Of a stretch of 64,000 bases of DNA, positions 40,630-64,000 are shown in pieces; position 1 is the stretch's first letter, and each line of letters starts with the position of its first letter. Origin of the DNA: Trypanosoma brucei (taxonomy: Eukaryota); contig CH464491.1 in the NCBI GenBank assembly GCA_000002445.1, positions 1,856,001 through 1,920,000 on the forward strand, written 5' to 3'. The translations under genes were made by a program, and so were the position numbers. The notes under the pieces are model-generated. The model was not told the DNA's origin. It saw only the letters and a program-made list of their open reading frames with translations, and made no database searches.

Positions 40630-43600
40630 CTACTCATCCAAATGGAATGAATCTTCTCTTTCCGCATTCTCTTGTGTGGTCGATATCTCGCATTCCGCCT
40701 CCTGATCGAGGCGTTTCTGTAAGCTTCGTAGGGCCTCTATACGATCCGCTGTCGGCGACTCAGGCGGGGAAGTGGTTATTAGTCCTGGTGACGCCTTTCC
40801 TACAGGCGAGAGAATCCTTGCAGACACGACGTGTGTTTTCCGCAGTCCAACTCCCAGATCCGCGGTAGCACCCCTACCGTGTCCATCGGATTCCCTTCCT
40901 GTTGTCACTGTCACCACCTTCTCGGCAAGTGTGCTGTCAGGCAAGCAAACACGATTCATGAGAGTTGGCCGACGCTCCTTCTGATGCACCACAACGTTTG
41001 CAAGCTCCATTGATGGAGGCAGTTGAGGTGGTCGCAGCAGTGGTGCCTGTGGCACCGTAGTCCCCTGGTTTAGTTCGAGTGGCGTTTTTTGTACTTGGGC
41101 GCCGGGTGTCGGTGTGGGTGTTGTTGTGCCTGTCACACGACGAGTCTTCCTGTAGCTTGGGGAAGCCTCCTGAGGCCTCTGCCTTTGCCCTAGACGCAAA
41201 ACACCAGCAGCGCTTTGTACGGACCCTTCTCCAATGGCCTCAGGTGCCCCACCTCGACCGCTACGTTCCGCTGTGGATCCTCCTGACTGGGAAGGCTGCA
41301 AGCTGCCGGCCACTGATGTGGTGTCCACCCGCCGCAATCGGTCGTCGGCCCCTGGGACGAGGGGACCCGAGCAGAGAGCACGTGCCTGCGCCAGAATCAT
41401 GTCATAGAGTGCCTGCCAGTCGCTATTGTCTGAAGGATAAATGCGGCGGAAGTTGCGCAACCGAGAGTCTTCAGCAGCGCGGCGGCCCTCAACTGTTTTC
41501 TCCCACTCAGTCATCCCATCCTGAGTGCTGGAACTCCCTGCTCCCGTTGCGTTGCTTGCTTGATTTGCATTCGAGGAGGAGCCATTTGTGGCGACACCAT
41601 TTGCTGTATCACCGGAATTCTGTCGCTTCTGCGCCGTCGTTGTGTGTGTATTGGCGGTGTTCACCGGTGGTCGCATCATTCGCTGGATAAACTCATCACG
41701 CTCTTTCCGCTCGTCGCGCTTCCTGTCCGTCACCTTCACGTCGAGAATATCCCATACCTCACTAATAAGTGCATGTTTCACCTCGTAGTCCAGAGGTGTA
41801 TCGGTAACGAGCGACGGTGTGTGGTTTACCTCCATTAGCCATGGCTTCATTTTGTTATCCACCAAAATATCAAAACCAAGCACCTCAAAACAGCTATACC
41901 CACTATTGTGTCTTGGGAAGCAAGAGTTGTACACATTTGCAATCTGTGGCTGCGCAACCAGGATAGTTTTGCAGATGACGTGCGCCACGCGAGCCCAAAA
42001 CTGTTCTACGGACTTGCCACAGCTTTCCAGCCATTCGTTGAAAAACTTGAAGTTACGCTTGTTGCCCACATTGCAATTAGCCGGATCATCGTTGAATACA
42101 TACTCGGGATTATGTTTGTTGACGGCGTAGTTTGTCAGATGCTTACACGTGTTCTTTACATTCGCATCTGTGGGCCGTTCATAAAGTTCTGCGCACTGCC
42201 GGACAAGCCCATCATTGAAAAGAAATATCGAGGGCGCTCTGATGGACGTTAGCAGCACGTAAACGCGCAGATCAAACTTCCGTCCTTCAAGAAGCAGTGG
42301 ACGGGTAATGTACTCCTGCACAATGTAATTATCAAGATCTTCTACGGCGTTGAGAGGATCACGCGTTATCATAATTCCTCGGCCCTGGCAGCCAGAATTC
42401 GGTTTCATAATGAAAAACTTCGACAATTTCTTGCTGCGTAGGGCCATCAGAAAACGAGCAAACTGGTGCCTCTCGCTCCTAAGCGACCACGTGCGTGGAT
42501 AAAAAATGTAATGTGATGGCATTACTTTCCTCATGCGACCAAGTGTGATGCCTAAGTGCCCTTTCCGACACAACAAATACATTGAGGGGAAGTGATTTGT
42601 CCGCTGCCAGTTGGCCAGCCGGACAAGCCGCGTCAGCGGTAGCACTGTGTCTGACCACACAATATTGAAATTGTTCCTCTCTAGATCGTCCTCCAACTCC
42701 TGAATCTTAAATCCGTTTTCCTGCGCAATGATACGGAGAAGGGGATACTTGCAGAGGGCAAGGTTCACTATTTTGTACTGTGGTCGCGCCCGCCTGGAAC
42801 CCGGCGTTTTGGTGAGGCTATTCAATGGTGTACTTCTCGTACCGGGGCGCTCGAGGTCAGTGAGTCGGAGCGAAGAAAGGGGCGAAAATGGCCCAAAGGC
42901 GCCGATCGCACCTCGTGATACCGTAGAGTTTTTACTACTGTTAGGAGTGGAAACATTTGACTCCAACCTGCTCATGGCGGAACCTGCACTCCTCCGATGA
43001 ACGGGACTTCTCGACGCACTCGAGTCCCGTTCTCTCGTTGTCTCACATGGCGTTCTTTCACCAACTTTACCTGCAGAACCTGCGGAATGCCATCCACGTC
43101 TAATGGGTGAGATGGGTTTCGGCGAAACATTAATCTTCTTGGGTGTCGATATCGACCCGCCTCGCATGTCAATGCCCACCGGCTTCCGAATGGTGCTATG
43201 CTGAATGATGACCGTTTTGTCTTGTTTCTCTACAACTTCCTCTTTGACACTCGTTCCACTCATATCAATCAGCTCCCGTATGGTTTTTTTGGTTGATTTA
43301 GCGAACGGGGAGCCGAGTGTACCAGCATCTAGCCGCGGCCTCGCCATGCTTCCGCTACAACGCCTTCGCGAAGGATTTACTGAGAGGGGAGCGTCCGCAC
43401 GCAGTACACCAACTTTCGACCCCCCATCTTCGGAGATGTGCCCGGTGCCGGCCGCGCCCCCCATTGATTCCTCTCGGACATGCAAGGTTGACGACAGCGT
43501 CTCCGATATTAGGACTGCGGTGGCAACCTGCTTTCGCGGTCTAGCTATTACTGGCTCCATCATGTTCCTCATCCTTTTCTTTTGGCTTGTTTGTGGAACA

Positions 43601-43632
43601 CAAGCAGAGGATATGCAAGGGGAGAATAACAC
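40630..43632 (-). CDS. Tubulin-tyrosine-ligase-like (TTLL) family protein (tubulin polyglutamylase/glycylase-like); true start probably an internal Met
   Basis: TTL-domain motifs: WQRTNHFPSMYLLCRKGHL, FIMKPNSGCQGRGIMI, YIVQEYITRPLLLEGRKFDLRVYVLLTS, IFLFNDGLVRQCAELY, KHLTNYAVNKHN, CFEVLGFDILVDNKMKPWLMEVNHTPSL. Confidence 0.8.
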   Translation of the reverse strand: MLFSPCISSACVPQTSQKKRMRNMMEPVIARPRKQVATAVLISETLSSTLHVREESMGGAAGTGHISEDGGSKVGVLRADAPLSVNPSRRRCSGSMARPRLDAGTLGSPFAKSTKKTIRELIDMSGTSVKEEVVEKQDKTVIIQHSTIRKPVGIDMRGGSISTPKKINVSPKPISPIRRGWHSAGSAGKVGERTPCETTRERDSSASRSPVHRRSAGSAMSRLESNVSTPNSSKNSTVSRGAIGAFGPFSPLSSLRLTDLERPGTRSTPLNSLTKTPGSRRARPQYKIVNLALCKYPLLRIIAQENGFKIQELEDDLERNNFNIVWSDTVLPLTRLVRLANWQRTNHFPSMYLLCRKGHLGITLGRMRKVMPSHYIFYPRTWSLRSERHQFARFLMALRSKKLSKFFIMKPNSGCQGRGIMITRDPLNAVEDLDNYIVQEYITRPLLLEGRKFDLRVYVLLTSIRAPSIFLFNDGLVRQCAELYERPTDANVKNTCKHLTNYAVNKHNPEYVFNDDPANCNVGNKRNFKFFNEWLESCGKSVEQFWARVAHVICKTILVAQPQIANVYNSCFPRHNSGYSCFEVLGFDILVDNKMKPWLMEVNHTPSLVTDTPLDYEVKHALISEVWDILDVKVTDRKRDERKERDEFIQRMMRPPVNTANTHTTTAQKRQNSGDTANGVATNGSSSNANQASNATGAGSSSTQDGMTEWEKTVEGRRAAEDSRLRNFRRIYPSDNSDWQALYDMILAQARALCSGPLVPGADDRLRRVDTTSVAGSLQPSQSGGSTAERSGRGGAPEAIGEGSVQSAAGVLRLGQRQRPQEASPSYRKTRRVTGTTTPTPTPGAQVQKTPLELNQGTTVPQAPLLRPPQLPPSMELANVVVHQKERRPTLMNRVCLPDSTLAEKVVTVTTGRESDGHGRGATADLGVGLRKTHVVSARILSPVGKASPGLITTSPPESPTADRIEALRSLQKRLDQEAECEISTTQENAEREDSFHLDE

Positions 43633-43888: not shown

Positions 43889-45310
43889 TCATAGAATTGA
43901 CGTCTCCTTACTCGGATCGGGTGTGGGCTCTGTCCGACTCACGAGAGTCGCCGGCTCGGGTGTTGGGACGACCAAAACATGTTGCTTTGTCATCCCGAGA
44001 AGGGCAAGCTGCAATTCCTCAACTACGGTGGAGGCTATCACAATCACATCTGTCTTGCGCTGCTGTAAGAACTTCACAACTTGAATCGGGACACGCGTTG
44101 CTGTGGGTTCAGTTACCTGTTTGGTTGCGTGGAGTTGGCATACCGAAACCTTTGGCCATTCATCCTCCTGATGAGCGTCTTGCTCTTGGGTGACAGCAGG
44201 GCCCTCCGTCGCGGTGGTGGGGTTGGCATCGGCAGCACCCTCCGTTGTGCTCGGAACCATGCTCTCTGCCATGGGCTGTGCCTCTTGATTTTGCGGCTGC
44301 TCTTCATTTCCCTTCGGTGCTTGCTGCTCCTGTTTTGGAGAGATGAGAGACTCCGCGTTAATACTGCCTTCTTGGCCCTGAAGCAGGCGCTCAAGGGTCT
44401 GAGTGTAAAGTTCTATTTCTTCAGGTGGTGTACATCCCTCGGCTATTACCACAGCACAAACCACATCACCGCTACCCTCACGACAACGCCCCAATGCATA
44501 CTGGACAACGCTACAATCCCGTATGAGCGCGCCCTCCTCACCTGGGCGTGGTAGCAGCACAACAACATGACGTAACGCCGTAGTATTGAGCCTCAACGTG
44601 GTGCCGTTACCCTTAATGAACCACAACGGGTACGTTTGACGTATTTTGCTGAGAACTGCCCTACTCACATGTCCAACACTAATATATTTGTTTTCCGTGG
44701 TGTTACCAGCCCCGAGAAGAAGTGCACCGGCATTGTGATGCTTCAGGCGGTCTTCTGCGTACTGTGCAATAATGCCAGCACGTCTCCTTTCCACCTCCTC
44801 CGCCAACTCGCGTGCGGCCGCTTCTAATTCTTCCGTTGTCTGTTCCGGTGCAGCCTGTTGGTGATGTTCTGCATCTCTTTTCCCTGACATTCCCCCCCTT
44901 GTGGAGAGTCGTTGCCGCGAACCAGGGCGAGGTGGATCCGCCCCGTGGGATATTTCCATTGATGCCCTTATCGACCTCGGTGTGTTAAGTGGTGTTTCTT
45001 GGAGTGCCATGGTCTCTAGTTTATAGTTGAGAGTATCGCGTGTGGCCTTGCTTCCCATGATGGTTTCCAATGTCTTGTGAATTGCTATAGAAGGCGGAAG
45101 TCTCTTCGCAGTTCCTGCCTCTTCTGGGGGTTGTGGTACACTCTCAGGGCTATCAAACTGAAGCGGTGATGGCAAGCCACATCTTTCCCATATGTGCAGC
45201 AAAATGAGCTGCTCTCCTTCGTGTTGCCGCATCATGTAACCAGGAACAGAAGCCCAGCTCACTGCCTTGAGGGACGCCGGGCCGCCGTCACACATAACAA
45301 CAAAAGTCAT
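43889..45310 (-). CDS. Hypothetical protein with USP-like (adenine-nucleotide alpha-hydrolase fold) segments
   Basis: 473-aa ORF. N-terminal MTFVVMCDGGPASLKAVSWA...GEQLILLHIWE and C-terminal DVIVIASTVVEELQLALLGMTKQHVLVVPTP both resemble UspA-type motifs. The central region is Gln/Glu-rich. Confidence 0.45.
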   Translation of the reverse strand: MTFVVMCDGGPASLKAVSWASVPGYMMRQHEGEQLILLHIWERCGLPSPLQFDSPESVPQPPEEAGTAKRLPPSIAIHKTLETIMGSKATRDTLNYKLETMALQETPLNTPRSIRASMEISHGADPPRPGSRQRLSTRGGMSGKRDAEHHQQAAPEQTTEELEAAARELAEEVERRRAGIIAQYAEDRLKHHNAGALLLGAGNTTENKYISVGHVSRAVLSKIRQTYPLWFIKGNGTTLRLNTTALRHVVVLLPRPGEEGALIRDCSVVQYALGRCREGSGDVVCAVVIAEGCTPPEEIELYTQTLERLLQGQEGSINAESLISPKQEQQAPKGNEEQPQNQEAQPMAESMVPSTTEGAADANPTTATEGPAVTQEQDAHQEDEWPKVSVCQLHATKQVTEPTATRVPIQVVKFLQQRKTDVIVIASTVVEELQLALLGMTKQHVLVVPTPEPATLVSRTEPTPDPSKETSIL

Positions 45311-46114: not shown

Positions 46115-49100
46115 TCATAGCCGGTATTCGCGCGGGAGCGGGTCTGTCATTACCCAACCACCCTTGTCGGGCTTCAGTCCCTTCGCAGATTCCTTCTCTA
46201 GCCACACTTGACGCATAATCTCGTACAACGCCTTCGTGTCCAGAGAGCAGTACTCAAGTAACTGGATCCGAAGCATGGCCCACGCCTTGTCCCGGACATC
46301 AGGACGGGCGGCTTGCACCATCGTGTCCAATTTGTTCTTGCCCTCGTAAATACCGCGGCGCCGCTCGTCTTGCATGACTGTCTGCTGGAGGTCTCTTAAT
46401 GAGCCTCCACCTTCGTGGTGATACCACAAGCGGTACACACCCATGGCATTTTCGCCCTTCTGCTCGTCCTGCCGCCCACCACCACCACTACCTTCTCCCT
46501 CACCTGCATCAACCACGTCACCAGCCGCATCCCCACCAAAAACACCATACTTGAAATCAGGACACAAGCCCGGAAGAACCTTTTTCAGTGAATTAGAGCC
46601 ATGCGCGTTGGGGTGAACAAACCCTCGTTTAAACAAGTCAAGTGTATCAAGGAAATAGAACTGTTTGATTTCCTCCTTGTACTCATCCACCAACTGCCCC
46701 AATTTCTCCAAGCAAGATTTTTCAAAGCTGGCAAAGTGGGCAATGAAGCACCCATCGTAGAAGTTGACGGGTTCGTGTAGTGGATTATTTTTAGTAATAT
46801 TGGGTCCCCGAGCCTTGGTTGCGCGACGACCTCGCCGCGCGTTGGTGACTGCTGCAAACTCCTCTTCTTCCAGCTGCTTTTTTAGCCTCTCTAACCTCGC
46901 TAGTTCTCCAGACGCCGTCATCGCATCCCGTTTTTTCGCCCGCTCCTTCCGCACGATGTGCATTAGTTCCGCAATGCATGCACGCCGCGGGTCTTCATTC
47001 GGAGAGTAGCCCTTACCGAAGTGCAAGAAGTCATAGTGCGTTGGCGTTTCGTTGAGAACATCCTCCTGAAACACATCAAGAGAAAACTGGAATGGTAAAG
47101 GCTGAAATGCAACGACTTTTTCAAACGGGGGTAACGCGAATTGCGTTGCCTCAAAGTCGATTAAAAAAGCCGGATAGCGGATGCGCGAGAAGAAATCTTC
47201 AATTTCCTTGGGGTTGACAAATACTTTACCCGCTGTTATAGCCTTCACGTATCGTAACTGTGGTGCAGTAAGGTTAACAGCACCCTTTTTGTATTGGTAC
47301 AAAACGTCCTGGACCGTACGGAGGCCCTGTAACCACCATGTAGTCTTTCTCGAAACAGCGGTAGACGGAACGGTAAAAAGGTGATTATCACGCTGTCGAA
47401 TCGGTTCATCAAACTTGTTAGGTAAGCAAAGACCCTCAGCAAAAAAGGGACATACATCTCCCCGCGAGCAGTGGGCACCAATAAACTCCGAGTAAGTCGG
47501 AACGCATGGTATCTGAGTAGCACAGTGTCTACCTCCACCTTTACCTGTTGCCGTCGGCCCCTGCTTTGCCTTGGCAGCTTTGCCTTTCTTGCCTTTGTCC
47601 TCCTGGTCGTCCACTAACATCCCACTCTCGCCCTCATCAACAAATGTTGCCTTCAATACAGCGTCGGTATCACTGGCAAAAGCACGCCACTTCTGCGCAT
47701 TCGCAGGCTCTCGTCCCATTTCGACAAGCCGCAAAGTGCGAGTACTAATCAGTGCTTCCACCAGTTTCTGTTGCTTTGCGAATAATTTCCGCAGCTCCAC
47801 CTCCCTCTTCTTCGCGGTTCGGTTGGAGGTGCTGCCAGCCCATTGCTGGCGACCGTGACCACGTTCCTGCATGGCTTCCACCTCGGCCTGTAATTTAGTT
47901 ATGTCCTGCTCATCACTGGATGGAAACTCACCCGTGCCGAATGCGCTGCCCGATCGCTGGCTGTTATTTATGTCCGCGTCAATCATATCCTCGAGGGACA
48001 GCCGTTGTACATATTTCACAAGCCGAGTCGGATCGCAGTCCATCAACGTAACGGGTCCGGGAAAGAATTGCCGAATGTGCAGTAACCCACTGCGTTTTAA
48101 GTCCAAAGGCACCGCGACCTCTGCAGCAGTTTCCAGTCGATGACCCTTGAGATTCTTTTCAGTGACGGTGTCAAGGTCAATATCCAGGAATCTCTTTCGT
48201 ATACCTATTGGGATGTGTGGTTGCGTTATCCAGTAGCGAAAGGCAACTGTCGTGAAGTGCAACCTTTGCAGGTACTGTGCAAGTCGTACCGGGTTGCCTG
48301 CTGGGTCAAGTGCGGAGGCGGTTTCCAAGATAACCCACTGGTTGTCTTTGGGTCGGAACCGCAGCACCGCTGGTCTCGCCCGCAGTATAATGTCAGCCGC
48401 TCCCTTCTTTCCTCCTTGCTGAACCTTTTGTTGCTCCTGTGAGCCCCTACTCTGACCCCCAAATGGCGTCGCGAACGCGGGCCGATGGATTGTTAAAGCG
48501 GGAGCTTGGTCACCCAGTTGGGCGTATACAGTCTGGAAGTATTTCAACAGAATTTCCTCCGAGCGGCGAACTGCATCTTCAAAGTTCTGCTCCTGCACTA
48601 CAACAGCACGACTCCCAAACTGCAGCCGATCCCACCGCCGCGCAAGCTCGTTGAATGCTGCGCCGTCGTCGAGGTGTACCGCATCCGCTATAGAGATATC
48701 ACTAGTTAGGTCTGTATGGTTTTGCAGCAGGTGAAATTTCTTTGGACATGTAAGGGAAGCGGCAAAGCCCTTGTACGTGAGAATAGCCGGTGACCTCGCC
48801 GCCGACGATGTGGCCCGCTGTGTCGTCCCTTCGGATGATTTCTCTTTATTGTCGCTTCCATCCCGCCCCTCCAGGCATTCGTCCAAGTCTGACATCGGCT
48901 CTGATGCTTCCCTGTAACTACGCAACACGTGCCGGAGGGGTTCATCCGCGTCGTTCACCTTCTTCACGGCATCCACCACGGATGAAACGAGCGTCGAGTG
49001 GGCCTTCTTACGGAACATAACCCACACACGCAAGGTTGTACTTGAGTTATATTTGCGTGTGAATACACACGTATGAGAATTATTGTGTCCAGAGAAGAAA

Positions 49101-49123
49101 GGGAAGAGCAAGTGTACGAACAA
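46115..49123 (-). CDS. Large hypothetical protein carrying a DUF2779-like domain (bacterial-type, PD-(D/E)XK-nuclease-associated) preceded by a Cys-cluster region
   Basis: Matches to conserved DUF2779 blocks: YPAFLIDFEATQFALPPFEKVVAFQPLPFQFSLDV (cf. Y-LDFET...PYQQIPFQ-SLH), THYDFLHFGKGYSPNEDPRRACIAELM (cf. H-EFL...DPR), CFIAHFASFEKSCLEKLGQL (cf. IVAYNASFEK), HGSNSLKKVLPGLCPDFKYG (cf. GSYSIKKVLPAL...Y). An upstream Cys cluster, CSRGDVCPFFAEGLC, is present. Confidence 0.6.
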   Translation of the reverse strand: MFVHLLFPFFSGHNNSHTCVFTRKYNSSTTLRVWVMFRKKAHSTLVSSVVDAVKKVNDADEPLRHVLRSYREASEPMSDLDECLEGRDGSDNKEKSSEGTTQRATSSAARSPAILTYKGFAASLTCPKKFHLLQNHTDLTSDISIADAVHLDDGAAFNELARRWDRLQFGSRAVVVQEQNFEDAVRRSEEILLKYFQTVYAQLGDQAPALTIHRPAFATPFGGQSRGSQEQQKVQQGGKKGAADIILRARPAVLRFRPKDNQWVILETASALDPAGNPVRLAQYLQRLHFTTVAFRYWITQPHIPIGIRKRFLDIDLDTVTEKNLKGHRLETAAEVAVPLDLKRSGLLHIRQFFPGPVTLMDCDPTRLVKYVQRLSLEDMIDADINNSQRSGSAFGTGEFPSSDEQDITKLQAEVEAMQERGHGRQQWAGSTSNRTAKKREVELRKLFAKQQKLVEALISTRTLRLVEMGREPANAQKWRAFASDTDAVLKATFVDEGESGMLVDDQEDKGKKGKAAKAKQGPTATGKGGGRHCATQIPCVPTYSEFIGAHCSRGDVCPFFAEGLCLPNKFDEPIRQRDNHLFTVPSTAVSRKTTWWLQGLRTVQDVLYQYKKGAVNLTAPQLRYVKAITAGKVFVNPKEIEDFFSRIRYPAFLIDFEATQFALPPFEKVVAFQPLPFQFSLDVFQEDVLNETPTHYDFLHFGKGYSPNEDPRRACIAELMHIVRKERAKKRDAMTASGELARLERLKKQLEEEEFAAVTNARRGRRATKARGPNITKNNPLHEPVNFYDGCFIAHFASFEKSCLEKLGQLVDEYKEEIKQFYFLDTLDLFKRGFVHPNAHGSNSLKKVLPGLCPDFKYGVFGGDAAGDVVDAGEGEGSGGGGRQDEQKGENAMGVYRLWYHHEGGGSLRDLQQTVMQDERRRGIYEGKNKLDTMVQAARPDVRDKAWAMLRIQLLEYCSLDTKALYEIMRQVWLEKESAKGLKPDKGGWVMTDPLPREYRL

Positions 49124-49662: not shown

Positions 49663-51327
49663 TCACAACGAAAACGACCTAACGACAAATATTATGAGCA
49701 ATAAGGCAACGCAAAAGGCAAACAGCAGCATGCATTGGGGCAATCTGCAGCGGGAAAGTTCAAAGGCACACCTTGACAGTCTGCCGCTAACACTTGAGTG
49801 CTGATTCCACATCAATTGCATCCGGCGCAGAGGGGAAGCTGAGCGTGATCCCTTTCTTTCCTCTCCATAGCGAGAATCACCCATCCTACTACCCCGGTTA
49901 CCACTGTTGTGGTGTTCGAGGATGGTGCTCGCTTGCGAGGCCATCGACCGCTTCAGTTCTTCCAACCTGAGCTCCATTGCTCGAAGTAACTTTGCTTTTG
50001 TTTGCAAGCGCAAGTTCTCCTCTTCAAGGGCCTTTTCACGCTGCGCCAACTCACGAAACTTGCGTTCATCCCCGTCGTTTCCGTCACAAGGGTAACCTAT
50101 TGGCACAGCACACGTCGACTTGGTTTGTTGCACAGCCTCTTCATATTTACGAGCCCACGCCTCTGCATCGTCGCGGCTCTTTTGCAGTGCCTCCTGCAAG
50201 CCCATGACCAGAGCACGATTTTCTTCAGAAAGAAGAAGGGTTTGGAAAGCCTCCTCGCGCATGTTAGCCTCCTCCTCCAAACTCCTCACAAGTCCCTCCT
50301 GTCTACCCAACTCGCGCTGCAGGGAGTTTACCTCAGCCGCAAGCTGCTGTGCATATTCCATGCGACTTGCAAGCTCCCTACTAAGTCCTGCTACGCGCTC
50401 GGTCAGCTGTTGTTCCATCTGCTCTCTCTCCAGTCTCACATTTGAAATTCTCCGCTGTGCGGCTTCTGCCTCGTGTTGTGCCTGATGAAGAAGGGTCTGA
50501 AGAGTGGCAAGCTGTTCCTCCCGCTGATACACTTCATTCATGCATCGTTGCTGTTCCAACTCATGCGCACGCTGCATCTCACGTAACTTGGCTGCATGTC
50601 TTTCTTCCAAGTTGCTCATTTCTGATCGCACTGTCTCCAACTGCTGCTGGTGAGCCGCGTCACTAGCTTTCAGCGCGTTTTCAAGCACCTTCTCCTTATT
50701 TGCTGCGTCCCCACCGCTCTCCAGCTGAGTTGTGTTTTGAGTCATAAGGGCCGAAAGCTCTCTATATTGTTCAGCTAGGCGCTCAAGGCGGGTCTTCATG
50801 ACACAAACTTCGTGCTCGGACAGTGCTAATTCTTTTTCCTTGAGCTCCATAGCATCCCTGAGTTTGTGCAGCTCTGCCTCATGTTGTTGCGTCTCCGCAT
50901 CAGTGCGCATGGTGTGCTCCACCGCGCACGTCTCCCGCACACGGGCGATAGCCTGCTCAAGATCCCGCTCGTGTTGCTCAACCATGCTGCGCTTCTCCTT
51001 TCGAAGTTCCATTAGTTGCGTCTGCACATTTTGCAGCTCTTCATCCTTCAGGCTGGTTCGCTCGCGGAACTCCTTCTCTAACTGCACCCGCAGGGCCCCC
51101 ATTTCGGAGCCATGGTTTGCATTAACTTGCTTTAGTTCGTCTCTTAGCTGCTTGTTCTTTTTTGTCGCCTCACTCAGTTGCTGGGCAACGGATTGCTTCC
51201 ATAAATTTGTTTTCTCCTGAAGGTCTCGCAGCTGTTCCTCGGCGGAGGGACGACGCGAGCCGTTAGCTTTGTCAGTTGCCTCCTCAGATGTGTCCATTGC
51301 ACCGTCTCGCCCCTGGAGGTTACGCAA
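49663..51327 (-). CDS. Long coiled-coil protein with C-terminal transmembrane anchor (tail-anchored)
   Basis: 554 aa, dominated by E/Q/L/R/A heptads. It ends in the hydrophobic segment CMLLFAFCVALLLIIFVVRSFSL just before the stop. Confidence 0.6.
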   Translation of the reverse strand: MRNLQGRDGAMDTSEEATDKANGSRRPSAEEQLRDLQEKTNLWKQSVAQQLSEATKKNKQLRDELKQVNANHGSEMGALRVQLEKEFRERTSLKDEELQNVQTQLMELRKEKRSMVEQHERDLEQAIARVRETCAVEHTMRTDAETQQHEAELHKLRDAMELKEKELALSEHEVCVMKTRLERLAEQYRELSALMTQNTTQLESGGDAANKEKVLENALKASDAAHQQQLETVRSEMSNLEERHAAKLREMQRAHELEQQRCMNEVYQREEQLATLQTLLHQAQHEAEAAQRRISNVRLEREQMEQQLTERVAGLSRELASRMEYAQQLAAEVNSLQRELGRQEGLVRSLEEEANMREEAFQTLLLSEENRALVMGLQEALQKSRDDAEAWARKYEEAVQQTKSTCAVPIGYPCDGNDGDERKFRELAQREKALEEENLRLQTKAKLLRAMELRLEELKRSMASQASTILEHHNSGNRGSRMGDSRYGEERKGSRSASPLRRMQLMWNQHSSVSGRLSRCAFELSRCRLPQCMLLFAFCVALLLIIFVVRSFSL

Positions 51328-55572: not shown

Positions 55573-56331
55573 TCACTCCAATTCCTCCATCGCAGTTCCG
55601 TCATCCCGTCCTTCCGGATGTGCGTCTTCTGTCCATAAGGCGAGGTTGTCACGCAACAGTTGCATGATGAGTGCCGCTTCTTTGTGTTGTTCCTCATCCA
55701 ACACATCCGGATCGCTCAGCGCCTCCTCAAAGGCCTCGCGTGCCAATTGGCAACCGCGGTCAGGACTCTTCAGGATTTCGTAATAGAAAACGGAGAAGTT
55801 TAATGCGAGTCCGAGGCGAATAGGGCTCGTCGGTTTCAATGAAGCGTTGTATTGCATTGCCTGCGTGTAAGCCTCCAGCGCCTTGTCCTTCTGTTCCTCT
55901 GTATTGGTTTCAATTTCGGCATAGTAACGGTGATAGTCGCCCTTCATCTTGAGGTAATACACTTTCGTCTCATCCGTCTCAGCATTAGGCAGCAGATGCT
56001 TCTCGATAAGTTCCAAAATGTCGATGCAAATGTCACTTAATTCCTTTTCGATTTGGCGCTTGAAGGCCTTAATGAGTGTAACATTCTTTTCTTTCTTCAG
56101 ATCCTCCTTCTGCTCCAGTGCGCTGATGCTTCTCCAACAGGCACGACGGGCTCCAATGACGTTTTTATACGCGACGGAGAGAAGATTGCGCTCCTCCGAC
56201 GACAGGACGGGGTTCAGTTTTACGACCCGTTTCATGCAAACGAGGATCTCGTCATACCGCTCACACTGTTCAGCGATCCGCGCCATGACTGTAAGCTGCT
56301 CGCGCTTTTCAGGTATTTGAAAGCCCGCCAT
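55573..56331 (-). CDS. 14-3-3 protein
   Basis: Full-length 14-3-3 signature blocks: [66 protein letters not shown], and an acidic C-terminus. The ORF track extends the N-terminus through an A-rich leader. The real start is taken as ATG 56331..56329 ([13 protein letters not shown]). Confidence 0.9.
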
Positions 56332-58856
56332 TTTAACCGCTTGTTTTTTCTTTTGTTTTTTTTGTTGTTGTTGATATACGCGTTCTTTGTTCACTTATTT
56401 TCTTCTCTTTTTTTTTTAATATAGATTTTTTTTTGTTTATTCTACGTACTGTTATTTAAAGCAAAAATGGTAATAACAGCAACGCTGGTGTAAAGACCCA
56501 CCTTCACTTGATGCTATTCTCCTCTTTTTTTTTCTTTTTTTTTTCAAAAAAAAATGTTGACTTCACCTATTTTGACGTTCTCTTTCCTTCTCACGTTGCT
56601 CTATCCTTTTTATTATTGTTATTATTCTTTTTTTTCTCGATTGAATCTCTTTAACTACAGCACACGAAAAAAAAAAGAAGGAAACAACAACAACAACACG
56701 AGACGGTTGTGTACAATGATAATAATGAGAGCAACAGAAGGTGACAAAACAAACAAAAGAAAAACAGTAATAAACAAAATTTAAAGTAATAATAAAAATG
56801 ATAAAAAAAAAAAGGAAACATAAATAGAAACCGAAGATACCCATAATATGTAGGAATTTTAAAAAAAACAAAGGGAAAAAAGAAAAAAAAACTTCGAAAA
56901 ACAAAAAACAAAGTAAAGAAAGAAAGAATAATAACAAACAACAAAAACAACAAAAAACAAAAGAAATCGTAAATGGAAAAAAAAACAGCCATGAGAAAAA
57001 TGTGTGAAGGCAAGAAATATATGATGAGAGAGGCGAGAAAACAAAAAGGTGGAGAGGAAAACAAAAAAAAATAATTATAAAAGGGTGTCGTATCATCGTT
57101 ACATTTCACGCAAAAAAATGTATGAATAGAGTAGAGGCCTTATTGCATTTACCATTATAATCATCACCATTATTATTATTATTATTATTCTTATCCCGTT
57201 CTTTTCTATTTGTGTGTGTGTTTTTTTTTTAATTTGATTTCGCAAGGGTTGCTCCATTCTCGGTACCAGCTTTTCTTTTTTTCTTTTTATTTCTTAAAAG
57301 AAATTTAAGTTTTGATATATATATATATATATATATTGTTTAAAAATTAATTGCCCCATTTTCCTTCTTCTTAATTTCTATATTCACTTTTGCCCCTGCT
57401 CCACTTCACCTCCGCACAACAAAACAACAACAGAAAGATACCGTTACAAATATGCAAACATTCCACACAGCCCGAAACCAACCGCGCTCAAACAAATAAA
57501 ATAATAACAATAATAATAATAAAGGAAACAACAAAAATACAACACGATATCATAATAATAAAGAACTCTATGGTATTTTCCCCCTTTCAACAGGTTTCTT
57601 TTAGCCAAAAATATTTTCATTTATAAAAAGGGGTAAAGAAATGACAAAACAAATCACAACAGGTTGGTAATGATGACTGCAGGTGTACGTTAAGTAAAAG
57701 GTTTTGTGGGCTTAAAATATGTTTGCATATGTTTTTCTTTTCTTTTTTTAACCACCTCTCTTTTCCTCCTCCTCCTCCTTTACGTTTGTGTTGTTGTGCG
57801 AAGTAAAGTGTGAAGTGAATTGGGAAGTGATGTGTTGTTATATAAATATATATATTTTTTATTTTTTTTATTTATTCGACTCCCTTCTTTTTTCTTTTTG
57901 TGTTTCCTCTCCGCCAATTGTAGAACCTCACTGATGTATTTTAACTTCTTTTTTTTTTTGCGTCTATGGTGCCACAGCGCTCATCGTATTGAAAAACGGT
58001 TCGCGCCGCGCGGGAGAAAAATTGAAAAAAAAACAATTGAAAGTGTTTGTGTTTATTTATTTATTATTTTTTTTTTGCGATTAAATTGTGTGTGTAAAAG
58101 TGAGTGAGTGAATGAATGAATGTGGATGTATATATATATGTGTATGTGTATGTGTCTATGGGGTCCTTTTACACATCCTCTGGCTGTTCCATTTACCAAT
58201 CTACAAAACAAAATAAAAATAAAGAGGAATCAACTGAATCACGCGCAAACACAAGACCAAAAATAAAAAATTAAAAAAAAGATAAAAATAAAAAAAAATA
58301 AAAAAGATAATTCGGCCGTTTCATGCAGCAGAATATGTAGAGGCTCTATATTTCGGATCCCTGAGGCGTATATATATATATATTTTTTCCTTCCCTCTTC
58401 TTCTTTTGTTCTCTCGTCCTTCTGAAATGTATAATGAACGAAGAAATATACGACCAACGGCTCCGAAGTGGAACATAAAACATAAAATAAAAGAAAACAT
58501 AAAAAAAACGAAGAGGGGAATACTTGTGTTTGCATATTCATATATAAATATATAAATATATATGTGCGTGTGTGATTCGTAAGAGGGGAAGGAAATATAT
58601 GTTGGACTTCCACCAAAGAAACAGTCCGTCATCTAAATTGTAAGGGGAAGGGAAGAAGAGGTGTAGTAAAACAAAAAACAAGAAAGGGTGGGGAAATGTA
58701 CAAAGGGAAGGGAGAAACTTATCCTTTAAAACAAAATAATAATAATAAAAAAACATTAGACAAAACACGATAAAAATACAAGGGTAAGGAAGAACTGTAA
58801 CAAACAATAAATTAAAAAAAAAACAACAACAAAGAAACAAAGTTTTTAATTCGATT

Positions 58857-61646
58857 CTATTCCAACGACTCACCAGAGGAGGCCTTGGTGGTGTCAGTCT
58901 GTTTTGCACCCTCCACCGCCATTTTCTTTTGGCGGCGCTCGTGCATACGTATGGTGCGCTCAGTCTGCTTGATCAGCTTTCGCAACCGTCGTGACACAAC
59001 CATCGAATGTTCTAACGACCCTTTAACAGGACCCGAAAGACCTAACTGCTGTACGGGAACACTTCCACCTTCTTTTGCTGCTCCATTTTGCAAGTACCGG
59101 TCTAAAGAAGTCCCCTGACGCCGTAAATGATAAACCATATCATTACAGCGCTTCCATGAGGACACGGGGTACTCGGCTAACGATGGCAAATTGTCTACGG
59201 TATTAAGTTCACGGTCAAACTTGACACAAGCCTCATTTGCCAGCACCATCTTGGGGTCAAAAGAAGACATACTAAGTTGCTCTGGGTTGCGTACACGACT
59301 CATGGCGACGTATAACAAATGCTCACAGGGCCACATGCGGGACAGTTCGAGATGGACACGACCAACAAGCGTTAGTCCCTGCACCTTATGGACGGTGAAG
59401 GCATATGCTAAACTAAGGGGCAGGGATACGCTGCTTAGACTGTAGTACTGGGTAATGGGATTTCCACCAACCAAAAATTCCCACGGCGGGACAACAATCG
59501 TTTCACCACTATGGAACTTAACTACAGGTAAAAGCGGTACGGGCATGCCGCATTCCATCGTGCAGTAAATACGATACCTATCGACGCAGCGGTTCACACG
59601 TTCGCAACGAAGGGCAACAGGAATATTTTCCATACTACACTCCACGAAGTCCACTACTGTACCAATACTCCCGTTGACTAAACGTGAAGTGAGGTTGGTA
59701 CGCAAAAGGACGCGGCACCCCTTCTTTAGCGTAAGCGGTTGCGCGATGGGGTGCTTTGCCATAAGCCTCTGCAGACATTCCTCGTGCTCTGGCGTGTGCA
59801 GACCGTCTCCGCTGGGTATAATCTCCGTCACAGTGGCTCCTATGTCTAAGTCATTGATCAGGCCTGCAACTTCTAGGAAACGCTCGCGTATCGCGTCACG
59901 CCAAGCAACACTTTCGCTCTGCGGAAGGTAAACGCGTACGGCATGACCATCTTCGTAGATACGGTAGGCAGACACCATGGATGCCCTAGGGATGTCAACT
60001 GTGGCTTGCAGCAATCCACGCAAGTGCTTTGTAAACTCCTCCACTTTGAAATCCTTCGTTGTCCTCATGAGGAGTGTTGCTGTGGTGTCACACCTAAGAG
60101 CTGTTATACCCGTCTCCGGCGTAAGGGTGACAGCATCTCCGGGAAGGCGTTTCAGTTCTTCTTCATTCGCTGTGTTTACTTCCTTGTTGGTTGGAAGAAG
60201 GTTCACGGCTGCCGGTACCATAGTTCCCGGTGGAAGCTGTTCAACAGACGCTGTCAAACTTTCCGGCACAAGTCCTACACGCATTTGTTGCAACGCATCT
60301 GCAAAAAGACTGCTCTTGGCTTGGCGAACCTGAGTTTCCAGGCGGATCTTCACGAATTTCTCCCGGAAAGTAGTGGAATGGATTATCGGGGGCTCATTGA
60401 TCACACCTAGCTGCAGGAAATCACCACAGAGGATGATTTGCACCCCGCCAAAGGGCACGTCCGGCGCACCAGCTTCCTCACGGAGAACCCTATCGAACTC
60501 CTCAAACATTTTCTTAGGCAACATAGACACTTCATCAATGATGATAGCGTCGTAGCTCAATAGGTGGTTCTTTCGCACGAAGTCACCCTGGGCGGAAACT
60601 CCCATGGCGTGGTGGAAGGTTGAACCTCCAATGTGGCAACCAGCAACACCTGTGGTGGCCGTCATTGCAACGCGCAATCCCTCCGCTTGCATCCGTCTAC
60701 ACAAGGCGCGTAGCAAAACCGTCTTTCCTGTACCAGCACTGCCACCAATGTACATCAAGTGGCCTTTCAGGGCCAGGTTAATGACCTTCTCCTGCTCCTC
60801 GTTAAGATCAACCGCAACAAACTCATCGGCCAAGCCACCGTCTAGGATATTCTGCAGGTCCGTATCGCCCACAGCATTGACAACGGCGGCGTAACGGCTG
60901 TGCGTTAGGTTGTTAATCTTCACCTGCATCATCTGCTGAATCGCTTCGGCTGGATCTTCAACTCTGCGGTTGCGTAGGATCACCCCGAGGGCACGGATAA
61001 TTGTTACGGGCCAGTTGGAGGGGAGCGTCGCCGTACCCTTCCTCATTCTCTGCGCGAGGTCCCGGAGGACATCGGGCTTCTCAACGTACAGCTGCCGTTT
61101 GTTGTTGACACCAAACCCTATGCTCTTCAAGCATAAGAAGGATGGTGATGTCTCCGATGTCATACGGCCAGTCAGTGCGTTGTACACCAACGTCGAATGA
61201 AGGGGTAGTTGAGGCTCACCGTCTATTGGCCCCATCGTTTCCTCTTGTGGCTGAATTTGTGGTGGTGTGGCTGCCAGGGGCTCCTCCTTAACTTCAGCGG
61301 CGCGCACCTCCAGAGTGGCAGGGGGTTGGATGGCGTCTGGCATGTTTTCCTGAGGCAGTGCAACGCCTTCCCGCGCCCCCGTCACTGAAGTTTGCGCGTC
61401 TGTGGGTGTTGAGAGGGTCGTCGTTGCTTTGGAACGTCGCTTTGAGCCCCTCTTGGGCTCACGCTTGCGCTCCTTCTCCGTTCCACTGGTGAAGCGCATG
61501 GCACAAAATAGTGCACCGGCGTTGTAGTCAACAGGCATCAGTGCGGTGCGAACGAGTCCGACAGAAGCGCTTTTACGTGGTAGAGTTGAAGCTGATGTAC
61601 CCGACAACGCCACATTGTACGCTGGTTGGAGGAGCCGACGCAACAT
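58857..61646 (-). CDS. PIF1-family 5'-3' DNA helicase with mitochondrial-type presequence
   Basis: Walker A YIGGSAGTGKT, Walker B IIIDEVSMLPKKMF, motif III ILCGDFLQLGVI, and the PIF1 C-terminal block [52 protein letters not shown]-terminus MLRRLLQPAYNVALSG... Confidence 0.85.
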   Translation of the reverse strand: MLRRLLQPAYNVALSGTSASTLPRKSASVGLVRTALMPVDYNAGALFCAMRFTSGTEKERKREPKRGSKRRSKATTTLSTPTDAQTSVTGAREGVALPQENMPDAIQPPATLEVRAAEVKEEPLAATPPQIQPQEETMGPIDGEPQLPLHSTLVYNALTGRMTSETSPSFLCLKSIGFGVNNKRQLYVEKPDVLRDLAQRMRKGTATLPSNWPVTIIRALGVILRNRRVEDPAEAIQQMMQVKINNLTHSRYAAVVNAVGDTDLQNILDGGLADEFVAVDLNEEQEKVINLALKGHLMYIGGSAGTGKTVLLRALCRRMQAEGLRVAMTATTGVAGCHIGGSTFHHAMGVSAQGDFVRKNHLLSYDAIIIDEVSMLPKKMFEEFDRVLREEAGAPDVPFGGVQIILCGDFLQLGVINEPPIIHSTTFREKFVKIRLETQVRQAKSSLFADALQQMRVGLVPESLTASVEQLPPGTMVPAAVNLLPTNKEVNTANEEELKRLPGDAVTLTPETGITALRCDTTATLLMRTTKDFKVEEFTKHLRGLLQATVDIPRASMVSAYRIYEDGHAVRVYLPQSESVAWRDAIRERFLEVAGLINDLDIGATVTEIIPSGDGLHTPEHEECLQRLMAKHPIAQPLTLKKGCRVLLRTNLTSRLVNGSIGTVVDFVECSMENIPVALRCERVNRCVDRYRIYCTMECGMPVPLLPVVKFHSGETIVVPPWEFLVGGNPITQYYSLSSVSLPLSLAYAFTVHKVQGLTLVGRVHLELSRMWPCEHLLYVAMSRVRNPEQLSMSSFDPKMVLANEACVKFDRELNTVDNLPSLAEYPVSSWKRCNDMVYHLRRQGTSLDRYLQNGAAKEGGSVPVQQLGLSGPVKGSLEHSMVVSRRLRKLIKQTERTIRMHERRQKKMAVEGAKQTDTTKASSGESLE
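59275..59433. repeat. Copy 1 of a ~160 bp near-identical tract shared by the two PIF1 paralogs
   Basis: 59275-59433 aligns to 62965-63123 with only about 4-5 mismatches (gttgctctgggttgcgtacacgactcatggcgacgtataacaaatg...), while flanking coding sequence is much more diverged. Confidence 0.85.
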
Positions 61647-62714: not shown

Positions 62715-64000
62715 TTACGGTGTTGCTTCCTTCGCTTGCTTTATCATTGCTTCTTTCAGTTTCGCAGCCTTCTTTTGCTTGGATTGCTTTGCCTGCTCCC
62801 TTTTCCGCTGGAGTGCCGCCTTACGTCTACTGGGTGTGCGCTGCCAGCTTGCCTGGAAGAAGTGTGGCAAAACCCGCACTTGTTCAACCGGAGGCAACGA
62901 GTCATCGAAGAGGAGACATTCAGACGCACATCGCACGAGACTGTTGTGAAACGATGACACCGTCAGTTGCTCTGGGTTGCGTACACGACTCATGGCGACG
63001 TATAACAAATGATCACAGGGCCACATGCGGGACAGTTCGAGATGGACACGACCGGCAAGCGTTAGTCCCTGCACCTTATGAACGGTGAAGGCATATGCTA
63101 AACTAAGGGGCAGGGATACGATGCCTACATGGTAGTGGTTCGTGTTTGACAGCCCTCCAACTGAGAAAAGAACGGGTGGGACAACAATCACGCGCCCCCC
63201 TCCGAAATCTACCTCGGGTGCAAACGCAGTGGTGAAGCCGTGCTCGTACCGTAGGTACTCGGCGTAATTTTCAACTGCGGCTATCCTTCCTGGTGTGTTT
63301 ACAAATCGCGGAAGGTGCTTTGCACTAAGTTCTTTGAACCCGACAACTACACCAAGACTACCATTTACGAGACCTGGGGCGAGGTTTGTACGCAACATCA
63401 CTTTAGCACCCTTCTTGAGGCGTAGCGGAGACGCCATGGGGTGAAGCTCTGCATATCGCGTTAGCGTGTAATCGTCTGCATCGGTATGCAGTCCGTCAGG
63501 TGAGTCAAGGATTTCTCTCAAGAAAACCCCAAGCCCACACGCCGGAAGCCATGTTTCCAAACCACGCAGATGCAGCGCAAGGTCCCGCATGTCCTTCTCA
63601 CTCATGTCTTGTGGTATACGAACTCGAAATGCGAAGGCATCAACAAACAGTTTGTACAGCACAATGTACCGCTGACCTACAACCGGTAGCGTATAATCAC
63701 TGGCATAAGGTGTTTTCTGAAGGAAATCAAGCACATACTGCTCTAGCGCCCTGGTTAACTTATGCGTATCTATCATTTTCGTGTCTTTCACCACAGCCTC
63801 CAGTATATATGTTGCAGTCCACCGTCCAACCAGTGATGGAGCTTGCATTTGTGCGGGATATACGACAAGATCACTGGGAAGCTTGTCCAGCTCTGCTTGA
63901 TTCACCTCATCCACTTCCTTGTTCGTGGGGAGCAACTTCACCGCGCCCTTTCCCTCACCCTCTAACCATTTCGCTGTTTCTGGTGGGGATAGGAATTGAA
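62715..64000 (-). CDS. PIF1-family DNA helicase paralog, N-terminal part beyond the window edge
   Basis: C-terminal PIF1 block [51 protein letters not shown] and upstream helicase 2B-domain similarity to the neighbouring PIF1. The frame stays open to the window end, so the listed Met at 63941 is probably internal. Confidence 0.8.
62965..63123. repeat. Copy 2 of the PIF1 inter-paralog near-identical tract
   Basis: See copy 1 (59275-59433). Confidence 0.85.

Follow-up and report, generated by a model that had tools for sequence, protein, structure and literature searches.

In 2014 Majorek et al. (PMC3985635) assigned PF11074 (DUF2779) as family F.17 to the 3′-5′ exonuclease clade within the RNase H-like superfamily and reported its co-occurrence with DUF83, a Cas4-like PD-(D/E)XK domain. 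In a 2026 analysis (PMC13621843) members of the DUF2779 family were described as a Cas4-like N-terminal nuclease joined to a DEDD(y) exonuclease; the best match was to MrfB, the Cas4-type catalytic residues of MMSYN1_0389 were given as D186/E210/K212, and the finding that MMSYN1_0389 is quasi-essential in JCVI-syn3.0 is the sole genetic datum for the family. That DUF2779 is a DEDD-type 3′-5′ exonuclease fused to a Cas4-like module is therefore already published. Here we analyze a eukaryotic member, the orthologue of Tb927.11.6830, which is encoded on the minus strand of a 64,000-nucleotide stretch of chromosome 11 of Trypanosoma brucei (GenBank assembly GCA_000002445.1, contig CH464491.1, positions 1,856,001–1,920,000; in the following the window, to whose numbering all positions refer).

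The prokaryotic relatives are abundant. Typical bacterial members of about 480 amino acids exceed the Pfam thresholds for DUF2779, Cas_Cas4 and RNase_H_2 and match the PADLOC Cas4 profiles nearly end to end (E 7e-12), through the cysteine cluster. As counted with one motif pattern, the family is present in at least 564 species-representative genomes, which cover many bacterial phyla and include some archaea. These scans agree with the initial annotation of the trypanosome gene, which had regarded DUF2779 as mostly prokaryotic and usually located behind a Cas4/RecB-like module.

The T. brucei gene lies within an uninterrupted open reading frame (ORF) at 46115–49123, minus strand, to which the ORF list gave a length of 1002 amino acids from a TTG start. 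This start is an artefact, because the program that listed the ORFs used the bacterial code. The first in-frame ATG is at 49018 and none is found upstream of it; the real protein therefore has 967 amino acids (UniProt D0A7K6/Q384Y7). The complete coding sequence comprises 46115–49018, of which 49018–46118 is coding and 46115–46117 is the stop codon. Over its full length the protein is 100% identical to that of T. b. gambiense DAL972 (D0A7K6/XP_011779921). The reading frame reported initially was thus correct, the protein length of 1002 residues was not. Residue numbers given below refer to the 967-residue protein and are obtained by subtracting 35 from those of the 1002-residue ORF.

We confirm the observation of a DUF2779-type gene in a trypanosome. 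It had been noticed before: in TriTrypDB and UniProt the protein and its orthologues already carry the name "DUF2779 domain-containing". Experimentally the product is indeed uncharacterised, since a literature search yielded no publication on it; the supplements on DNA-damage RNA interference target sequencing (RIT-seq), TrypTag and structure-based annotation had no entry for Tb927.11.6830. New here are the reading of the protein as a dead Cas4 joined to a live DEDDy exonuclease, its deep conservation in kinetoplastids, and the combination of mitochondrial import with an association with RPA. The earlier interpretation of the gene is partly supported.

With moderate confidence we propose that the protein is most likely a mitochondrial 3′-5′ DNA exonuclease which uses an iron-sulfur pseudo-Cas4 domain and a linker as DNA-binding module and functions in kinetoplast DNA (kDNA) replication or repair. 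It is, on this reading, a nuclear-encoded, mitochondrially imported member of the DUF2779 family that was remodelled in kinetoplastids. Its C-terminal DEDDy domain, which resembles DnaQ and the proofreading domain of PolB, would act as a Mg2+-dependent 3′-to-5′ exonuclease on DNA 3′ ends or on single-stranded DNA (ssDNA), while the iron-sulfur pseudo-nuclease domain and the helical linker would hold or thread the DNA without cutting it. The task in the cell would be the trimming or degradation of 3′ ends during kDNA replication or repair. Possible jobs are the processing of minicircle gaps and flaps, the clean-up of linear or damaged molecules and editing in trans for polymerases that do not proofread; a fraction of the protein may also act on RPA-coated nuclear ssDNA.

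Replication of kDNA involves unusually many polymerases, helicases, ligases and topoisomerases. A review of kDNA maintenance factors (PMC10719067) lists no nuclease or exonuclease, and the protein is a concrete candidate for this gap. Because no human orthologue is found by sequence, it would be parasite-specific. It would also give a first functional handle on a widespread, unstudied family with a quasi-essential member in JCVI-syn3.0, and a clean natural case of a Cas4-type nuclease turned pseudo-enzyme in which the ligands of the metal cluster are still under selection.

The exonuclease half and the Cas4-like half

The T. brucei protein matches PF11074 with 99.5 bits (E 2.1e-28; gathering cut-off 23.3 bits) over profile positions 2–126 of 126. 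The initial annotation had recognized this domain correctly and had expected it at residues of about 430–780; it is located at residues 619–810 (ORF residues 654–845; 46589–47164, minus strand), a segment that spans ExoI, ExoII and the GSxSxK signature and does not include ExoIII. A profile hidden Markov model (HMM) built only from 95 bacterial-size relatives scored the protein with 213.4 bits (E 3.4e-64, bias 0.7), whereas 500 globally and 500 locally shuffled versions reached a maximum of 2.4 bits, so that the similarity is not a product of composition. The match consists of four collinear segments (residues 79–165, 513–692, 755–825 and 901–937), the best of which (109 bits) aligns HMM positions 206–364 to residues 513–692. 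The whole bacterial protein is therefore represented, broken by lineage-specific insertions: the domain is not merely embedded in a larger trypanosome protein, as had been assumed, but the entire Cas4-like plus DEDDy architecture is there in enlarged form.

AlphaFold2 with an alignment of 141 sequences gave a model with a mean predicted local distance difference test score (pLDDT) of 85.3 and a predicted template modelling score (pTM) of 0.87, in which 618 residues have a pLDDT of at least 90. It superseded a model from 25 trypanosomatid sequences, which had a pLDDT of 56 and left the exonuclease domain unmodelled.

The DEDDy 3′-5′ exonuclease domain, with an RNase H-like fold, comprises residues 613–945 (46184–47182, minus strand) and is interrupted by a helical, basic insertion (677–754) and by an acidic, glycine-rich disordered loop (826–853). 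Conservation was counted in an alignment of 151 proteins, among them 107 bacterial-size relatives and 33 trypanosomatid sequences. The ExoI motif LIDFEAT (47144–47164), on model strand 617–625, contributes D621 and E623. Both are found in 107/107 bacterial-size relatives, and all trypanosomatid sequences that extend over these positions have them. In the ExoII-like motif HFASFEK (46718–46738) residue E766 is a glutamate in all trypanosomatids and in 106 of the 107 bacterial-size proteins, the remaining one having an aspartate. A further acidic residue, D791 in FLDTL (46640–46654), is an aspartate in all trypanosomatids and 107/107 bacterial-size relatives. The motif GSNSLK (G807, S808, S810, K812; 46583–46600) is a family-wide signature, GSxSxK, with G in 102, the two S in 100 and 106, and K in all 107 bacterial-size sequences; K812 is invariant across the 141-sequence alignment. 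ExoIII, YCSLDT (46235–46252), lies on a long C-terminal helix of the model (906–944) and with Y923-x3-D927 defines the DEDDy subclass; no trypanosomatid lacks either residue, and each is conserved in 106/107 bacterial-size relatives. The domain thus has the RNase H-like exonuclease fold, the DxE of ExoI, the acidic residue of ExoII (Glu for Asp) and the Yx3D of ExoIII. To judge from these residues it looks fully competent and would have metal-dependent 3′-5′ exonuclease activity.

In contrast to other DEDDy and DEDDh exonucleases (the proofreading domains of family-B polymerases, ExoI, TREX1, Pol III epsilon, MrfB), this domain stands outside any polymerase. The glutamate in place of aspartate in ExoII is a trait of the DUF2779 family, as are the conserved D791 and GSxSxK, and T. 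brucei adds a helical insertion of about 75 residues. The exonuclease domain is preceded by a helical linker (residues 536–612; 47183–47413, minus strand; pLDDT 93–98) that is conserved with the bacterial relatives and belongs to the best HMM segment; it possibly binds DNA.

The N-terminal half contains a Cas4-like core with a RecB-type PD-(D/E)XK fold (residues 77–345; 47984–48790, minus strand) that is predicted to be catalytically dead. When the N-terminal halves of the trypanosome and the bacterial proteins were compared with hhalign, a probability of 98.0% and an E value of 2.4e-13 were obtained, and the trypanosome region is therefore homologous to the bacterial Cas4-like module. The T. 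brucei protein itself had no direct match to PF01930 or to the PADLOC Cas4 profiles, a scan of NCBIfam found nothing, and sequence searches of the PDB with the single protein and with a trypanosomatid profile gave no matches, while a 141-sequence profile retrieved Cas4 weakly (E 0.22).

The nuclease motifs II–III of this core are degenerate (LRARPAVLRFRPKDNQWVILETASA; residues 212–236; 48311–48385, minus strand). T. brucei has A217 at the column of the catalytic aspartate and A234 at that of the catalytic lysine. The aspartate is present in 104/107 bacterial-size relatives and in 0/33 trypanosomatid sequences, which have A, L, C, Q or V; the lysine in 98/107 and 0/33, respectively (in trypanosomatids Q, A, H, M or F). 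At the catalytic glutamate, conserved in 97/107 bacterial-size proteins, 26/33 trypanosomatids have E or D and seven have Leu or His. The second D of Cas4 is likewise absent from 33/33 trypanosomatids. The hhalign register at the D and K columns agrees with that of the 151-protein alignment. Of the RecB-like nuclease considered in the initial annotation the fold is thus present; the motif II Asp and the motif III (D/E)xK are not. Since D and K are lost in every trypanosomatid orthologue, RecB-like nuclease activity is not expected.

The iron-sulfur ligands, on the other hand, appear to have been kept. C91, the putative first of four, is part of a CPKKF motif (48734–48748) that aligns to the bacterial motif C.K.LW; this cysteine is invariant in 33/33 trypanosomatid sequences and conserved in 94/107 bacterial-size relatives. 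The other three form a cluster, C517-x5-C523-x7-C531 (CSRGDVCPFFAEGLC; 47426–47470, minus strand), found in 99, 103 and 96 of the 107 bacterial-size relatives, respectively, and in all eukaryote-like relatives, and align to cysteines of Cas4 (8d3l). The resemblance of this cluster to the iron-sulfur cysteines of Cas4, pointed out initially, is therefore one of homologous position, and C91, C517, C523 and C531 are putative iron-sulfur ligands corresponding to those of Cas4. The domain is predicted to be a pseudo-nuclease that keeps the metal-cluster scaffold. Between core and cluster lies a lineage-specific insertion (residues 346–505; 47504–47983, minus strand) that shows up as a gap between HMM segments and has no counterpart in bacterial-size relatives. 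In the model, as judged by secondary structure and pLDDT, it contains a long helical hairpin (368–436) and, after this, a disordered stretch that includes a segment rich in Lys and Gly.

PD-(D/E)XK enzymes sometimes relocate their catalytic residues. One may therefore ask whether the protein could be an active iron-sulfur Cas4/RecB-like nuclease with a DUF2779 domain of unassigned role, which would make it a dual nuclease as in bacteria; the Cas4-like fold, the four cysteines and the acidic residue at the ExK position in 26/33 trypanosomatids would fit. We regard this as very improbable, because the Asp and Lys are missing in 33/33 trypanosomatids as well as in syntenic deep-branching orthologues (see below), the remaining Glu is replaced by Leu or His in seven, and two independent alignment methods give one register.

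The proposed pseudo-nuclease differs from Cas4, AddB, Dna2 and Exo5 in that D...ExK is not conserved and that there is no CRISPR context. The spacing of the cysteines differs too, C-x5-C-x7-C as compared to C-x2-C-x5-C in the Cas4 group. Yeast Exo5 is a mitochondrial iron-sulfur nuclease of the Cas4/RecB fold that is catalytically active and lacks a DEDD domain. Human MGME1 has an active PD-(D/E)XK site and neither a DEDD domain nor iron-sulfur cysteines, whereas in the T. brucei protein the expected polarity of the activity would be set by the DEDDy domain.

With the prokaryotic DUF2779 proteins the trypanosome protein shares the N-terminal Cys motif, the Cas4-like core, the three-Cys cluster, the helical linker and the DEDDy exonuclease in the same order, as well as all DEDDy residues, GSxSxK and the four cysteines, with a collinear match of 213 bits. 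It differs in being twice as long (967 versus about 490 amino acids) due to three insertions, in lacking the Cas4-like catalytic D and K, and in being eukaryotic, nuclear-encoded and mitochondrially imported; the identity is about 25%. A search of BFVD by fold retrieved giant-virus proteins that align over the whole two-domain length (930–1066 columns, E 1e-5 to 1e-4, probability 1.00), namely E3T4R0 of Cafeteria roenbergensis virus ("YprB RNase H-like"), A0A3G5AGZ9 of Sylvanvirus and A0A5K0U8I2 of Yasminevirus. They have the Cas4-like plus RNase H-like exonuclease architecture in common with the T. brucei protein at only about 9–10% identity and probably belong to a sister family of the PF13482/COG2251 type.

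Subcellular localisation and substrate

The protein was found among the mitochondrial proteins of T. brucei in the ImportOmics study (PMC5436138). Upon RNA interference (RNAi) against the import channel ATOM40 its level in mitochondria purified on gradients decreased to 0.27 (21 peptides, p 0.004); it fell to 0.52 in organelle-enriched fractions and to 0.65 in whole cells; upon SAM50 RNAi it was unchanged (0.90). Via the Panigrahi and Mach proteomes Tb927.11.6830 was already in the mitochondrial reference set of that study, and S1 Table of a paper from the Schneider laboratory (PMC11349236) flags it "Mitochondrial protein". The relation to an organelle that had been suspected from the sequence is thus substantiated by the ATOM40 dependence of import. 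The N-terminus, MFRKKAHS..., is basic, and residues 1–25 (48944–49018, minus strand) are a possible short mitochondrial presequence. The start MF(R/K)(R/K)K is conserved, and in Leishmaniinae the orthologues begin with 35–53 acid-free residues rich in Ala, Ser, Thr and Lys.

Several observations weigh against an exonuclease that serves kDNA in the mitochondrion. For the T. brucei protein neither TargetP nor MitoFates predicts a presequence (PMC5436138). The column for kDNA replication factors in S1 Table of PMC11349236 is blank for Tb927.11.6830, and its level did not change upon RNAi of TbPam18, which disturbs maxicircle replication. The literature contained enzymatic, microscopy-localisation or knock-down data for neither the protein nor any member of its family. 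That the four cysteines cluster in space, and how the active site is arranged, is deduced from alignments only, and a Foldseek search of the PDB returned nothing at E ≤ 0.001, though it indicated the same two fold classes. Also, RNA is a possible substrate, since DEDDy enzymes include the RNases RNase D and Rrp6 and since some of the structural matches are to RNase T, ERI1 and REXO2. Finally, an eLife paper of 2026 (PMC12975129) lists the protein, along with RPA1-3, FACT and histones, as enriched in purifications of YFP-RPA2, 70R-TALE and TelR-TALE. This enrichment with nuclear RPA2 and with TALE proteins (transcription activator-like effectors) directed against 70-bp repeats and telomeres could reflect a nuclear localisation, a dual one or the binding of ssDNA after lysis.

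The last of these findings could mean that the protein is mainly a nuclear exonuclease, processing DNA ends or ssDNA with RPA at replication and repair intermediates, including those at telomeres and at VSG-associated 70-bp repeats, and that the mitochondrial signal is due to dual targeting or a minor pool. The missing presequence prediction is in keeping with this, and Lys/Arg-rich stretches in the insertions could serve as nuclear localisation signals. Yet the drop to 0.27 in purified mitochondria is strong and specific for ATOM40, not seen with SAM50, and earlier mitochondrial proteomes contain the protein; purifications from lysates can pick up ssDNA-binding proteins after lysis, and ribosomal proteins and RNA helicases are in the same enrichment lists (PMC12975129). 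A mainly nuclear role is therefore unlikely in our opinion. If the co-purification with RPA2 and the 70-bp repeats is biological, the interest in the protein widens to the stability of the nuclear genome.

Trypanosome mitochondria carry out unusually heavy 3′ processing of RNA. A mitochondrial 3′-5′ exoribonuclease that trims or degrades transcripts (precursors of guide RNA, rRNA and mRNA) would therefore be conceivable; the protein is mitochondrial, the DEDD superfamily has many RNases, and the structural matches include RNase T, PARN, ERI1, REXO2/Orn and RNase D. The best structural matches, however, are proofreading domains of DNA polymerases, ExoI and TREX1. The partner domain goes back to DNA nucleases of the Cas4/RecB type, the protein co-purifies with RPA, which binds ssDNA, and the RNA-editing and MRB1 columns of the mitochondrial reference set carry no flag for it (PMC5436138). 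We consider a function in RNA processing doubtful and favor DNA over RNA as substrate, because the folds closest to it are those of DNA proofreading domains and of DNA exonucleases, because the partner domain comes from DNA nucleases and because the protein co-purifies with RPA and with TALEs targeted to DNA repeats.

Evolution in kinetoplastids

An exhaustive profile search yielded 2582 relatives, 141 of which were used for the model alignment; further searches with an alignment and with a conserved block found essentially no new ones. All trypanosomatid genera that were sampled have an orthologue, as has Trypanoplasma (Cryptobia) borreli, and about 130 alignment columns are invariant across 25 trypanosomatid species. 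Two metagenomic proteins, P0038 and P0042, are about 30% identical to the T. brucei protein, and their genes are followed by a small ORF, a gene of the tubulin-tyrosine-ligase (TTL) family and another ORF in the same order as in the window; on the P0038 contig BOP1 comes next, also in the same order. Because of this shared gene order, P0038 and P0042 are taken as orthologues from deep-branching kinetoplastids. Like the trypanosomatid proteins, both are devoid of the Cas4 D and K. Syntenic orthologues of such low identity show the gene to be ancient in kinetoplastids; the spread of the orthologues also speaks for purifying selection. The EukProt model P0031 (1253 amino acids) has an OPA3 domain (PF07047) fused to the DUF2779 protein; it is most likely a merged gene model, since OPA3 in T. 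brucei is Tb927.11.6850, two genes upstream. The fusion also indicates conserved synteny.

Three long distant relatives, P0187, P0052 and P0053, retain D/E/K. The contigs of P0053 (JGI 3300066132) and P0187 (ENA ERZ1292630), our loci L001 and L002, have dense arrays of genes on the same strand, and that of P0053 carries clearly eukaryotic genes in a euglenozoan-like layout. If P0187, P0052 and P0053 are all eukaryotic, the Cas4 active site was lost after the family had entered the eukaryotes. In a neighbour-joining tree (calculated with no bootstrap) all 35 long eukaryote-like sequences fall within one clade of 37. The tree is compatible with a single acquisition, after which the kinetoplastids would have lost the Cas4 active site. 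Among the search results there was no named eukaryote outside the kinetoplastids; a match in a "Colponema" transcriptome may, we presume, be contamination by prey.

Horizontal acquisition, for which a phylogeny had been suggested, is hence consistent with the tree as a single event, but not as a recent one. A recent transfer, a contaminant of the assembly or a decaying, functionless pseudo-enzyme might come to mind, as the great majority of the family is prokaryotic (hits in at least 564 species genomes) and the identity to bacterial members is about 25%. These ideas are hardly credible: the gene is part of a conserved polycistronic array within a chromosome of 4.5 Mb, orthologues occur in all sampled trypanosomatid genera and in syntenic position in relatives of about 30% identity, about 130 columns are invariant over 25 species, and 21 peptides have been detected. 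We reject contamination and recent transfer on the basis of synteny, conservation and proteomic detection.

A more far-reaching and tentative scenario, which we judge improbable as a whole, is that an early kinetoplastid gained a bacterial Cas4-DEDDy nuclease, that the Cas4 part was switched off with its iron-sulfur scaffold kept, and that the protein now is the missing stand-alone 3′-5′ exonuclease of kDNA replication or repair, maybe with dual targeting that also takes it to the RPA-coated ssDNA of telomeres and of VSG 70-bp repeats. Dual targeting, if true, would provide a link to the recombination underlying antigenic variation.

Genomic neighbourhood

In prokaryotes the neighbourhood is of little help. 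In 10 of 80 loci (L004, L005, L009, L012, L029, L030, L034, L038, L044 and L078) the DUF2779 gene has a same-strand neighbour, no more than a few kb away, that encodes a tandem-AAA ATPase of about 690 amino acids; the representative scanned contains two PF00004 stretches. The other neighbours in the 80 loci are not conserved. Because the neighbourhoods are variable, there is no strong guilt by association.

All large ORFs of the window are on the minus strand, as expected of a polycistronic unit. The initial annotation had placed the DUF2779 gene in one array with a kinetoplast-type DNA ligase and two PIF1 helicases. The helicases are there: the genes of the mitochondrial helicases TbPIF1 (Tb927.11.6890; 58857–61646, minus strand) and TbPIF2 (Tb927.11.6900; 62715–63941, minus strand, cut by the end of the window) are located 10–15 kb upstream. 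Trypanosomatid polycistronic arrays are not functional operons, and this proximity therefore has little weight. It was rejected as functional evidence; the conserved synteny partners, TTL and BOP1, are unrelated to DNA metabolism.

The DNA ligase calls for a correction. The nearest "ligase" is the TTL-family protein of 1000 amino acids (40630–43632, minus strand; PF03133, E 2.6e-69), which probably is the one that had been meant; its gene is syntenic with the DUF2779 gene on contigs of deep-branching kinetoplastids (locus L003, the P0042 contig). About 20 kb from the DUF2779 gene there is an ORF of 575 amino acids (26060–27787, minus strand) resembling a divergent ATP-dependent DNA ligase by weak yet concordant signals, with 26.4 bits for PF01068 (cut-off 26.2), a weak DNA_ligase_OB_2 match and an E value of 0.0024 for the DNA ligase of African swine fever virus (6imj). 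It is not LIG k-alpha or LIG k-beta, the genes of which (Tb927.7.610/.600) are on chromosome 7, whereas this ORF is on chromosome 11; it may encode a ligase-like protein that is strongly diverged and unstudied.

The DUF2779 gene is directly flanked by an ORF of 473 amino acids with a weak N-terminal match to universal stress proteins (Usp; 43889–45310, minus strand) and a coiled-coil-like ORF of 554 amino acids with no family match (49663–51327, minus strand), neither of which has an obvious relation to nucleic acid metabolism. Between about 54000 and 58000 the G+C content of the window dips to 0.33–0.42 as compared to about 0.50 elsewhere; the dip surrounds the gene of 14-3-3-II (55573–56394) and includes the spacer before PIF1.

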